From Octopus vulgaris (Eukaryota): 64,000 nucleotides of DNA. The notes under the pieces are model-generated. The model was not told the origin of the DNA, ran no database searches, and saw only the letters and a program-made list of their open reading frames with translations. The DNA is taken from positions 75,516,001 to 75,580,000 of the forward strand of contig OX597822.1 in the NCBI GenBank assembly GCA_951406725.2, given 5' to 3'. Made by a program: the position numbers and the translations under genes. Shown here in pieces: positions 5,521-54,989 of the stretch (position 1 is its first letter; every line of letters starts with the position of its first letter).

Positions 5521-6667
5521 TGGACTCACAAAATGTGTTAACGATGATGATGAGAAGAAAAAAGCTTGCCAGGCATACCCCATTACTACTATAAATACTT
5601 GAGAATACTTGAGGCAGATGGAATCAAACACCACGACATGAAGGAAAAGACAAAAGGAGAGTATCTGCGGTGAGTGAGAAAAATATTGGCTTCAAATCTG
5701 AAAGCTAGAAGCATAATTTCGGTAATAAACTCGTGCGCAGTCGCAGTAGTTTGGTTTGGTGCTAGAATCCTGAATCAGACAGAGGAAGAGCTAAAGGAAA
5801 TGGATAGGGAGTCAAGAAAGCTCCTAACGATGCATGGAGCGCGTCACCCACGTGCAGACACTGATAGCTTATGCATGAAGAGAGCAAATGGAGGAAGGGT
5901 ACTGATAAGCGTGGAAGACTGCGCGCGTATGGAATTCGAGAGTTTAATGAGATACCTGGCCCAAAGTAAGGAAACCTTGCTAGTGAAAGTTAGGAACGAG
6001 GGAGTATTGAGGGCAAAGAAAAAAAAGGAAAAACAAAGGTAGAAATGCAGAAAGGACATGAAGAAGAATTACGCAAGAAGGGACCACACAATCAGTTCTA
6101 TGTAGTCACAACAGAAGTTGCTGGAAAAATAGGATTGGCTGATGAAAGGAACCCCCCCCCCCCCAAAAAAAAAAAAGAAACCGAGAGCACTATACTGGCA
6201 GTGAAGGACCAAGCTTTGGCCTCGAACTGGAGGATCAACCCGAGGAATGAGTGAGTGACTTTGCTGTGCCGCATCTGCAACAGAGTGGATGAAACCATTT
6301 CCCATATCACGAAGGAATGCCCTAGACTTGCTCAAAACTACAACAAGTAGTAGCAACACGATCAGGTAACTGTTCAAAAAGTGGGGTCTAGAGAGAGACA
6401 AAATTTGGTATGAGCACAAATCGCAGAGAGTAGCAAAGTCTGAATCTAGCAAAATCCTCTGAGACTTCCCAATCCAAATAGAACAAGGAGCTGGAGTATA
6501 ACAGACCGGACTTATAGTGGTGGACAAGGGGCACCACATATGCTATATAGTTGCATGCCGCTTTGACCCACGAATAGTCAAGAAAGAAGGCGAAAAGACA
6601 GTTAGATATTAAGCTTCGTATATTTTAGCCCAATTTCACTTTGATAGCATGCACTGCTCTCTCACTC
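5521..6667 (+). mobile_element. Decayed R4/Dong-like non-LTR retrotransposon (RT C-terminus, zinc knuckle, restriction-like endonuclease)
   Basis: YKYL.ILE, INSCAVAVVWFG, HPRADTDSLCMKRANGGRVLISVEDC, CRIC..VDETISHITKECP, KIL*DFPIQ, RPDL-like motifs with stops and frameshifts; bounded by TAT/TAA repeats. Confidence 0.75.
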
Positions 6668-35035: not shown

Positions 35036-35210
35036 TATGATGTGTGTGAACAAAGTTTGATTTTTTAAAAGCGTTGAGATGTATAGAAATATACAAATAT
35101 GGAAATATTTTACTCTCAAATGCATAATAGTAATGCTGAATAGCATAAATAGGATAGAACATCCTTATATTGCAGAAGAATTTGTTGCGTTTGACTGTAA
35201 AATTTTTCCA

Positions 35211-35277
<67 letters not shown>

Positions 35278-35397
35278 ACAATCAAGGAACGGCCATAATA
35301 GGCCATTCACCCACTAGAAATAACAGCCAAAAGCTTTAACCGCAAAATAACGTTAATTCCGTAAACCAGGAGAAAATTGAAAAACATTTACCCTGTA

Positions 35398-35504
35398 ATT
35401 TCTTAGACGATGCACCGTTTCATCTTCTGTTTAATGGAAAACTAACCTGATTAAATTAAATCAAGCCAATCTACCATAGGCCCTTAGAATCATCAGTAAG
35501 AAAT
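35398..35504 (-). ncRNA. Type I hammerhead ribozyme, monomer 1
   Basis: Reverse complement of the motif at 37018-37124. Confidence 0.75.
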
Positions 35505-35891
35505 AGCCAAGCCGGAACAGATATTTTTCACGAGGCATTCTCGTTGCTACCTCGTCAATATCTGACCTAAAATTTTCAAATCGTCGCACTCGCGCCAAAT
35601 TTATCGGCAGCAAATAAATATAAGCCGCCGATTCCATTACGGAATTAACCAGAAAATTCATAATTAATCAATATAGGGTGGCAAAAAAAAAATTTTGTAG
35701 AATTCTTTTGCCACCAGCGGCCTAGTGGGAAAAAATTAAATAATCATAAACTATTTTTAAGTTCAACATCAACAATCAAGGAACGGCCATAATAGGCCAT
35801 TCACCCACTAGAAATAACAGCCAAAAGCTTTAACCGCAAAATAACGTTAATTCCGTAAACCAGGAGAAAATTGAAAAACATTTACCCTGTA

Positions 35892-35998
35892 ATTTCTTAG
35901 ACGATGCACCGTTTCATCTTCTGTTTAATGGAAAACTAACCTGATTAAATTAAATCAAGCCAATCTACCATAGGCCCTTAGAATCATCAGTAAGAAAT
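35892..35998 (-). ncRNA. Type I hammerhead ribozyme, monomer 2
   Basis: Reverse complement of the motif at 37018-37124. Confidence 0.75.
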
Positions 35999-36382
35999 AG
36001 CCAAGCCGGAACAGATATTTTTCACGAGGCATTCTCGTTGCTACCTCGTCAATATCTGACCTAAAATTTTCAAATCGTCGCACTCGCGCCAAATTTATCG
36101 GCAGCAAATAAATATAAGCCGCCGATTCCATTACGGAATTAACCAGAAAATTCATAATTAATCAATATAGGGTGGCAAAAAAAATTTTGTAGAATTCTTT
36201 TGCCACCAGCGGCCTAGTGGGAAAAAATTAAATAGTCATAAACTATTTTTAAGTTCAACATCAACAATCAAGGAACGGCCATAATAGGCCATTCACCCAC
36301 TAGAAATAACAGCCAAAAGCTTTAACCGCAAAATAACGTCAATTCCGTAAACCAGGAGAAAATTGAAAACATTTACCCTGTA

Positions 36383-36489
36383 ATTTCTTAGACGATGCAC
36401 CGTTTCATCTTCTGTTTAATGGAAAACTAACCTGATTAAATTAAATCAAGCCAATCTACCATAGGCCCTTAGAATCATCAGTAAGAAAT
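36383..36489 (-). ncRNA. Type I hammerhead ribozyme, monomer 3
   Basis: Reverse complement of the motif at 37018-37124. Confidence 0.75.
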
Positions 36490-37017
36490 AGCCAAGCCGA
36501 ACAGATATTTTTCACGAGGCATTCTCGTTGCTACCTCGTCAATATCTGATCTAAAATTTTCAAATCGTCGCACTCGCGCCAAATTTATCGGCAGCAAATA
36601 AATATAAGCCGCCGATTCCATTAGGAATTAACCAGAAAATTCATAATTAATCAATATAGGGTGGCAAAAAAAAATTTTGTAGAATTCTTTTTGCCACCAG
36701 CGGCCTAGTGGGAAAAAATTAAATAGTCATAAACTATTTTTAAGAATTCTACAAAATTTTTTTTTGCCACCCTATATTGATTAATTAAATAATTAAATAG
36801 TCATAAACTATTTTTAAGAATTCTACAAAATTTTTTTTTGCCACCCTATATTGATTAATTATGAATTTTCTGGTTAATTCCGTAATGGAATCGGCGGCTT
36901 ATATTTATTTGCTGCCGATAAATTTGGCGCGAGTGCGACGATTTGAAAATTTTAGGTCAGATATTGACGAGGTAGCAACGAGAATGCCTCGTGAAAAATA
37001 TCTGTTCCGGCTTGGCT

Positions 37018-37124
37018 ATTTCTTACTGATGATTCTAAGGGCCTATGGTAGATTGGCTTGATTTAATTTAATCAGGTTAGTTTTCCATTAAACAGAAGAT
37101 GAAACGGTGCATCGTCTAAGAAAT
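37018..37124 (+). ncRNA. Type I hammerhead ribozyme with long stem II, inverted monomer
   Basis: AUUUCUUA-CUGAUGA-(68-nt stem II region)-GAAA-CGGUGCAUCG-UC-UAAGAAAU; perfect 8-bp stem I, predicted cleavage after C37116 (GUC). Confidence 0.75.
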
Positions 37125-37350
37125 TACAGGGTAAATGTTTTTCAATTTTCTCCTGGTTTACGGAATTAACGTTATTTTGCGGTTAAAGCTTTTGGCTGTT
37201 ATTTCTAGTGGGTGAATGGCCTATTATGGCCGTTCCTTGATTGTTGATGTTGAACTTAAAAATAGTTTATGACTATTTAATTTTTTCCCACTAGGCCGCT
37301 GGTGGCAAAAGAATTCTACAAAATTTTTTTTTGCCACCCTATATTGATTA

Positions 37351-37411
<61 letters not shown>

Positions 37412-54392: not shown

Positions 54393-54467
<75 letters not shown>

Positions 54468-54475
54468 TTGAGTTC

Positions 54476-54539
54476 GTTGCACTGAAGAGCATAGAATGCA
54501 TATTGTGCATTGATTGCGAAATCACAGGTGATATGTAAC
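54476..54539 (+). ncRNA. Type I hammerhead ribozyme, intact core
   Basis: GUUGCA-CUGAAGA-GCAuagAAUGCAuauugUGCAUUgauUGC-GAAA-UCACagGUGA-UA-UGUAAC; predicted cleavage after A54533 (AUA). Confidence 0.85.
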
Positions 54540-54660
54540 TAAATTCTGTTTTTAAATGACTTGCTTTGAAGTTTTGCATTCGGTACAATTTGTTTATTTT
54601 AGTAGTTTTGATTGCAAGAGTCCCTCCTAGCGTGCGGTACCTATGAATAATAGTACCCTC

Positions 54661-54730
<70 letters not shown>

Positions 54731-54848
54731 GGTACTATTATTCATAGGTACCGCACGCTAGGAGGGACTCTTGCAATCAAAACTACTAAAATAAACAAAT
54801 TGTACCGAATGCAAAACTTCAAAGCAAGTAATTTAAAAACAGAATTTA

Positions 54849-54912
54849 GTTACATATCACCTGTGATTTCGCAATCAATGCAGAATATGCATTCTATGCT
54901 CTTCAGTGCAAC
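54849..54912 (-). ncRNA. Type I hammerhead ribozyme, intact core (mirror copy)
   Basis: Reverse complement of 54476-54539 with one change in the stem II loop. Confidence 0.85.
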
Positions 54913-54920
54913 GAACTCAA

Positions 54921-54989
<69 letters not shown>

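Follow-up and report, generated by a model that had tools for sequence, protein, structure and literature searches.

A non-autonomous hammerhead repeat of Octopus vulgaris with the insertion marks of Penelope-like elements

Results

A head-to-tail array and an inverted arm lie between two (TA)n tracts

The DNA analyzed here (the window) is a 64,000-nucleotide stretch of the Octopus vulgaris genome, and all coordinates are those of the window. A repeat insertion (locus L105) is flanked by two (TA)n tracts recognized by Tandem Repeats Finder (TRF), wherein the left tract (nucleotides 35210–35275, 33 copies of AT) is the insertion target and the right tract spans 37351–37409. The insertion has two arms of opposite orientation, both of which sit inside (TA)n. 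The long arm, on the minus strand at 35274–36744, is a head-to-tail array of 1471 nt, or 2.98 units of ~493 nt (TRF period 494, 3.0 copies, 98% matches). Its outer 3′ end is at unit position 132 after the predicted ribozyme cut, called site A, and its inner 5′ end is at position 139. The short arm, on the plus strand at 36816–37352, is 537 nt long (1.09 units), with its inner 5′ end at position 193 and its outer 3′ end at position 237, called site B. Thus, the left outer end of the insertion is A and the right outer end is B. The inverted match between the arms is 100% complementary over 505 nt. This layout is the one originally predicted, namely three nearly identical monomers and ~1.1 inverted monomers with TA tracts on both sides, and the ~43 bp by which the inverted arm was said to overrun one monomer is measured here as ~44 nt.

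Both end modules are present in the short arm. The site A module, which is composed of a hairpin followed by CCTTGATTG, is located at 37214–37248 (plus strand), where 37248 is the position of the short outer end of the insertions. The ~105-nt “tail” that follows (37249–37352, plus strand) is found at one outer end only and terminates in the site B module, wherein a hairpin (37301–37338) precedes CCTATATTG. At the inversion point, the end of the long arm and the start of the short arm form a 74-bp tandem duplication (2 × 74 bp, 36713–36861) that was absent from the original prediction. Elsewhere in the window, a short frame at 5674–6042 resembles a fragment of a non-LTR retrotransposon protein as judged by eye.

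Near-perfect inverted repeats in TA tracts are prone to misassembly, and the 74-bp junction duplication could be an error of this kind. Nevertheless, it is barely conceivable that the array is an assembly artefact, given that dozens of independent loci have their own flanks, haplotypes, and duplications and obey one common rule for their ends. The head-to-tail joint is also present in contigs of four public runs, whose kind we guessed; these contigs cover 29 to 30 of 30 bins and are equally compatible with a circle or a tandem, carrying no information on RNA, strand, or ends.

Each unit carries a type I hammerhead with an extended helix II

A descriptor scan of the whole window identifies four identical type I hammerheads. 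In each, helix I measures 8 bp, the core is intact with its halves 67 nt apart, and the cut site is GUC. Three are on the minus strand, at 35398–35504 (core 35496, predicted cut after C35406), 35892–35998 (core 35990, predicted cut after C35900), and 36383–36489 (core 36481, predicted cut after C36391). The fourth, on the plus strand at 37018–37124 (core 37026, predicted cut after C37116), is likewise modeled with an 8-bp helix I, a 67-nt extended helix II that has a U·U at its base, and a helix III with a palindromic loop. The positions 35398, 35892, 36383, and 37018 that had been assigned to one ribozyme per monomer are correct and represent the outer ends of helix I. An Rfam search of the window, which had been suggested as a check, returned no hammerhead at the gathering score or at E ≤ 10, probably because 67 nt separate the core halves. 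Weak matches to miRNA models were dismissed as the inversion hairpin and the TA tracts.

The three minus-strand hammerheads flank just two complete units as delimited by the predicted cuts, one of 494 nt with 36% GC (35406–35899, minus strand) and one of 491 nt (35900–36390, minus strand) that matches the first in 489 of 494 aligned columns; the plus arm holds no complete cut-to-cut unit. The longest ATG frame of the unit is 66 aa, and the mapped loci have no flanking LTR or internal region. Minus-strand read-through would cross the three predicted ribozymes and could release the two units, and a transcript across both arms would be expected to form a hairpin of >500 bp. A promoter scan with bacterial models, which are irrelevant to this host, remained at chance level.

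Hammerhead viroids and viroid-like RNAs are similar in size, form strongly folding circles, and carry hammerheads. A circle of the 494-nt unit is also predicted to fold strongly (−146 kcal/mol, z −6.7 versus 60 shuffles). However, the octopus element differs from these agents in that its antisense circle folds no better than shuffles (−99.8 versus −109), it spreads as DNA insertions, and its hammerheads are on the sense polarity only, as established by the descriptor scan of the window. Because the ribozyme is confined to one polarity, RNA-to-RNA replication is unsupported, and the viroid-like reading originally offered for the element gains no support here.

Comparison of lineages of the repeat reveals that the ribozyme core and helices are conserved down to ~70% identity. 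The core-adjacent pair of helix I changes from A-U to G-C, the long helix II includes a G-C to A-U change, and loop III changes from UGCA to UAUA with its palindrome kept. Moreover, N7 takes all four bases, and the GUC triplet becomes GUA (a change at H17). The U·U at the base of helix II in the window unit, where most copies have A-U, is a minority state common to four other loci. In an alignment of 15 rows, 97.9% of cells pair and two-sided changes occur in 5 of 35 pairs, a score reached by 0 of 500 shuffles and compared with 0 to 2 for slid controls; because these hand-picked rows are related and most were found by patterns fixing part of the core, this covariation constitutes support for the fold and not proof. 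Applied to nine whole units of five lineages, RNAalifold recovers the hammerhead in the linear unit, with two-sided changes in 12 of 135 pairs. As judged from these alignments, compensatory changes in helices I and II preserve the predicted ribozyme fold across lineages, in the manner of a fold under selection. A count of 0/2619 core substitutions among young copies was discarded as evidence, because mismatches close to the cut are lost where alignments end.

In six variants, the predicted hammerhead fold is less stable than the minimum-energy fold by 2 to 9 kcal/mol, with a gap of 6.6 kcal/mol in the window copy. The palindrome in loop III would suit cleavage by paired ribozymes, as described in PMC4209133.

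The repeat is a dispersed family with several lineages

We searched the 2.8-Gb genome, which is assembled in ~30 large contigs. At least 233 unit matches, located on more than 20 contigs, derive from the best 40 of 1054 candidates, and an exact 27-mer over the cut site (the 3′ motif of the ribozyme) has 955 genomic copies compared with 0 for its reversed control. On contig C1, the 96 matches listed fall in ~35 loci, which puts a fair estimate for the whole genome at a few hundred insertions. A sister lineage, 91.5% identical, adds 820 motif copies, and further lineages are found at ~90%, at 70 to 78% (with a 475-nt unit), and at greater distances still. The dispersal in (TA)n that had been anticipated for the monomer is therefore borne out by several hundred copies in ORF-free arrays, and the element is real and recently mobile. 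An older, more distant lineage (L209, L287–L305) has copies that are ~90% alike and 3168 candidates; its helix II is shorter, and its motif order and B end are as in the main family.

Insertions end at two fixed sites and resemble those of Penelope-like elements

Insertions were mapped in two sets: the 40 best-match loci (set 1) and 33 loci taken from the pattern list irrespective of score, comprising 31 C1 loci not previously fetched and two of C2 (set 2). In the loci mapped, arms are arranged back to back with their 5′ ends inward. Their outer ends fall at unit positions ~128–137 (A) or 230–249, mostly 235–240 (B), counted from the cut, such that the two sites are ~105 nt apart at ~132 and ~237 nt past the cut site. 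Two-armed insertions combine A with B in 33/34 cases of set 1, where the remaining one pairs B with another end, and in 20/23 cases of set 2, where three have one odd end and two neighboring arrays of other lineages are excluded from the count. Pooled, A+B is found in 53/57, and neither A+A nor B+B occurs. Single arms end at B in 5/6 (set 1) and 9/10 (set 2). Lineages at 91.5% and ~70 to 78% identity use identical A and B ends. A conserved hairpin and a CCTWDATTG motif precede both sites, and in the distant lineage the identical 9-mer is present at A and B.

Inner 5′ ends are spread across the unit, and the inner junctions overlap by 1 to 8 nt in 21/34. An apparent clustering of 5′ ends at the cut proved to be an artefact of query phase that vanished on base-by-base extension. 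The longest arm measures 10.4 units. A TA tract of ≥8 nt is present on at least one side in 39/40 and 29/35 cases, and five A+B insertions with imperfect TA targets (L077, L177, L184, L189, and L196) exhibit 14- to 15-bp duplications.

Copies had been described in the original prediction as circularly permuted. Only the inner 5′ ends vary, and the outer ends are fixed at two sites, one per arm. The permutation is therefore not free and corresponds to the “tail” of Penelope-like elements (PLEs), described in PMC8557442 as a one-sided extension that accompanies an inverted truncated copy and explained in vitro by two internal reverse transcriptase (RT) starts (PMC11167929). Indeed, the Penelope link suspected earlier is now reinforced by two fixed 3′ ends, an extension at one of them, an inverted 5′-truncated arm, and an AT-rich or (TA)n target.

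A motif, TTGGCTG(C/T)TATTTCTA, lies 40 to 55 nt before site A and recurs in other, unrelated-looking repeats (L038/L172, L144, and L169), one of which is two-armed with ends ~100 nt apart. It is possibly a shared protein-binding signal.

The units of an insertion probably descend from one unit

Across the 135 full-length units compared, a mean of 1.9 substitutions separates units of one arm and 1.7 those in opposite arms of an insertion, and units from different loci differ by 5.2 on average. Twelve private variants, each restricted to one locus, are present in every covering unit (3 to 7 units) in 6/40 loci, nine of them across both arms, and 20 locus-wide haplotypes are distinguished among the 40 loci. 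The presence of a variant of one unit in all units of both arms implies a single-unit step. Variants confined to a single unit number 117 (0.12% of bases) compared with 20 that are shared by part of the units, and the rarity of the latter indicates that later homogenization is slow. These findings agree with the proposal, made when the array was first noticed, that reverse transcription ran several rounds on one unit.

Cut-site junctions are exact in 287/299 cases, the rest being five junctions to another lineage, four point changes, and three deletions, and none of the 299 has untemplated bases. No arm 5′ end is located exactly at the cut (0/135), as the three scored at position 1 extend to positions 479–485. 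A ligated circle most simply accounts for both the haplotypes and the exact junctions, as far as can be read from genomic copies.

The same junctions bear on a rival mechanism, wherein the ribozyme excises linear units and the enzyme, on reaching the 5′ end of one unit, jumps to a 3′ end, such that no ligation is needed. A single-unit bottleneck is also expected here if the jump stays on the same molecule, mixed units fit jumps between molecules, and the three cut-site deletions (L093 twice, L086) can be cited in its favor. However, these deletions are not striking when 38 other indels of ≥4 nt are found elsewhere in the unit. Along with the exactness of the junctions, their freedom from untemplated bases, and the lack of arm ends at the cut, this makes jumping a very unlikely explanation.

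Another rival dispenses with the circle. Twin priming of the Penelope type could act on an uncut linear multimer read through from the source array, in which case the ribozyme may be idle. Unprocessed RNA is the dominant PLE substrate in vitro (PMC11167929), the ribozyme fold is not that of lowest energy, and the part-shared variants together with the L093 deletion indicate that some templates held unlike units. Copying a multimer, however, cannot spread a one-unit mutation to all units, as the 20 haplotypes among 40 loci and the 12 fixed private variants demand, and the ratio of 117 single-unit to 20 part-shared variants argues that later homogenization is slow. Arms that reach 10.4 units, and a core and helices conserved at ~70% identity, likewise speak against a linear template, which we regard as unlikely.

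Some loci are not explained by a single monomer circle. Part-shared variants occur in 11/40 loci. In L095 and L104 the variants alternate at period 2, in L074 they repeat at period 4, and in L093 one unit of one arm lacks 15 nt at the cut, a deletion also found in the opposite arm. In L095 (G000:C4), linked variants alternate along a six-unit arm, wherein the distance is 4.75 at lag 2 versus 8.4 at lag 1; this locus is a candidate for either a dimer-circle template or a later duplication. Thus, multimeric circles, template switches, or later conversion are needed for these cases. Period 2 was rejected as a general rule, with pooled lag distances being flat (1.97, 1.72, 2.03, and 2.25).

Such periodic patterns in L095, L104, and L074 could be later duplications, as would suit a third rival. 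The units might have started as solo pseudo-LTRs derived from an autonomous PLE and expanded into local satellites by unequal crossing-over after insertion, a scenario found in 10.64898/2026.07.22.740005, and the insertion marks are indeed those of PLEs. It is nonetheless highly improbable, because both of the oppositely oriented arms are multi-unit and have private variants in common, units are seamless with arms ending in part-units, and the mapped loci lack RT-GIY sequence within arrays or continuing from 5′ ends.

Young Penelope-like elements are candidate helpers

The identity of the element as an autonomous PLE was rejected, since no ORF for RT and GIY-YIG is present inside the mapped arrays or continues from any of their 5′ ends; PLE matches nearby are separate insertions. 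Searches with GIY-YIG and PLE proteins identify three young RT-GIY-YIG families within (TA)n (L049 and L055, at G000:C6 and C5; L266–L273; L277 and L283), which have intact open frames of 775 to 781 aa and are 45 to 55% identical to one another. Most young copies have an overlapping upstream frame of ~450 to 480 aa with no convincing Pfam match. A CxxxxCxxC sequence before the nuclease, a motif taken from PMC8557442, suggests the Neptune/Nematis type. The first family (L049, L055) includes a minimal hammerhead-like motif with a U3-A8 core variant. Two of the three families have two 3′ ends spaced 30 to 40 nt apart, and inverted copies, when read by eye, have one long and one short end in 5/5, a rule that the octopus repeat also follows.

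No sequence shared with the unit was found among the 110 PLE loci fetched, for which scoring covered 150 of 6136 and 141 of 5887 candidates. Two weak matches were set aside, where L148 is due to chance and L149 is an older relative of the repeat itself. Divergent lineages that were followed in search of a PLE yielded more ORF-free repeats and no PLE.

Discussion

The element is very probably a non-autonomous hammerhead repeat mobilized by PLEs. The fuller mechanism, in which a PLE-type enzyme pastes the retrozyme into (TA)n by copying a circular form of the unit, we consider likely. In this mechanism, the array would be transcribed, hammerheads probably paired through the palindromic loop III would excise units of 491 to 494 nt, and ligation would convert these to circles. 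Next, both strands of an AT-rich target would be nicked ~14 to 15 bp apart by a GIY-YIG/RT protein, and reverse transcription would be primed from each 3′ end at a separate internal site, with B used on one strand and A on the other. Copying would continue across the ligated cut site, completing up to ten turns before stopping at a random point, whereupon the two cDNAs would be joined, mostly at a few shared bases, to give a back-to-back array. Several observations count against the circle mechanism: the hammerhead fold is not the one of lowest energy and goes unrecognized by Rfam, most Xenopus retrozyme dimers failed to cleave in vitro and ribozyme mutants left PLE insertion unimpaired there, none of the 110 PLE loci fetched shares sequence with the unit, variants are shared by part of the units in 11/40 loci, and the 105-nt tail exceeds the 30 to 40 nt of the PLEs read.

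A still more specific account, which we advance tentatively and judge to have slightly less than an even chance, takes the insertions as traces left in the genome by rolling-circle reverse transcription. The Penelope-type enzyme would be a dimer and would bind one ribozyme-made circle, sometimes a dimer circle, priming from both nicked target strands at two hairpin-CCUWDAUUG modules 105 nt apart and running round from both at once. The RNA would be recognized by structure and not by sequence shared with the helper, and this device would have been kept across some 30 to 40% divergence.

By sequence-level criteria, the element is a new member of the animal non-LTR retrozymes, a class already known. 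As described for coral, Mytilus, and axolotl (Cervera and de la Peña 2020, PMC7229834), such retrozymes consist of tandemly repeated units that are non-coding, contain a single type I hammerhead, have a GC content below 50%, and lack LTRs, and in that report and in 10.64898/2026.07.22.740005 they have duplications of >4 bp and co-exist with PLEs. The octopus repeat has all of these features and is likewise dispersed. Its weak helix II base is matched by axolotl HHR_Amex2, and its 491- to 495-nt unit exceeds the 150 to 450 nt of PMC7229834 but is within the 51 to 972 nt of 10.64898/2026.07.22.740005. It differs in its 67-nt extended helix II and in its back-to-back arms with two fixed ends, which we did not encounter among the retrozyme descriptions of these sources. 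Cleavage and circles were demonstrated for the coral, mussel, and axolotl retrozymes, whereas for the octopus element they are predictions from DNA sequence. In Xenopus, 24 of 57 families matched known transposable elements, nearly all of them PLEs (10.64898/2026.07.22.740005), in contrast to none among the 110 PLE loci here; according to the same source, 8/9 Xenopus retrozyme dimers did not cleave in vitro. Our literature search found no paper on this family or on a cephalopod retrozyme, and an entry in a repeat database (Repbase or Dfam) is possible. Thus, of the original interpretation, the non-coding tandem hammerhead retrozyme kind, dispersal in (TA)n, the Penelope link, and multi-turn copying stand, whereas free permutation and the viroid-like label do not.

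EN+ PLEs (Craig et al. 2021, PMC8557442; Frangieh et al. 2024, PMC11167929) resemble the octopus element in their partial tandems, inverted 5′-truncated copy, one-end extension, AT-rich or (TA)n targets, two internal RT starts, and hammerhead upstream of the starts. The octopus element differs from them, as they are described there, in having no ORF, a tail of ~105 nt versus 30 to 40, many seamless whole units per arm, and a full hammerhead with a 3- to 4-bp helix III in place of the minimal form. PLE insertion in vitro is not impaired by ribozyme mutants (PMC11167929). Non-autonomous PLEs of Chlamys, such as MRC1 (PMC8557442), are also inserted as multi-copy, head-to-tail, pseudo-LTR (pLTR)-like arrays. 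In that account, they generally share a 3′ end with an autonomous family and belong to a clade without canonical hammerheads, whereas the octopus element has a hammerhead and no partner of shared sequence was found for it among the PLE loci fetched.

Mobilization of retrozymes by PLEs was proposed in PMC7229834 and 10.64898/2026.07.22.740005, and the spread by circle template and PLE helper has so far been argued from co-occurrence and pLTR likeness, with the latter source also weighing local satellite growth. The insertion sites described here bear PLE marks, locate both start sites with a precision of a few bases, and tie multi-unit arms to one unit. With intact young PLE proteins encoded in the same genome, the circle template and the one-long, one-short rule become direct in vitro tests. 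The end rule, the duplications, and the haplotype pattern thus open a life cycle that had been proposed to a defined experiment. Nothing points to a function for the host.

Other hammerhead elements are present in this genome. At 54465–54925 of the window, two 200-nt copies of an unrelated element face each other across a TA tract, with hammerhead cores at 54482 (plus strand) and 54906 (minus strand). This second element has 2142 genomic candidates, the best 40 of which are at 98 to 99%, and two 3′ ends ~85 nt apart; its convergent layout departs from the family rule and possibly reflects a later fold-back. Near PLE copies, several further type I hammerheads with a long helix II represent other families (L039/L173, L054, L056, L146, L034, and L042), some of them as inverted pairs.
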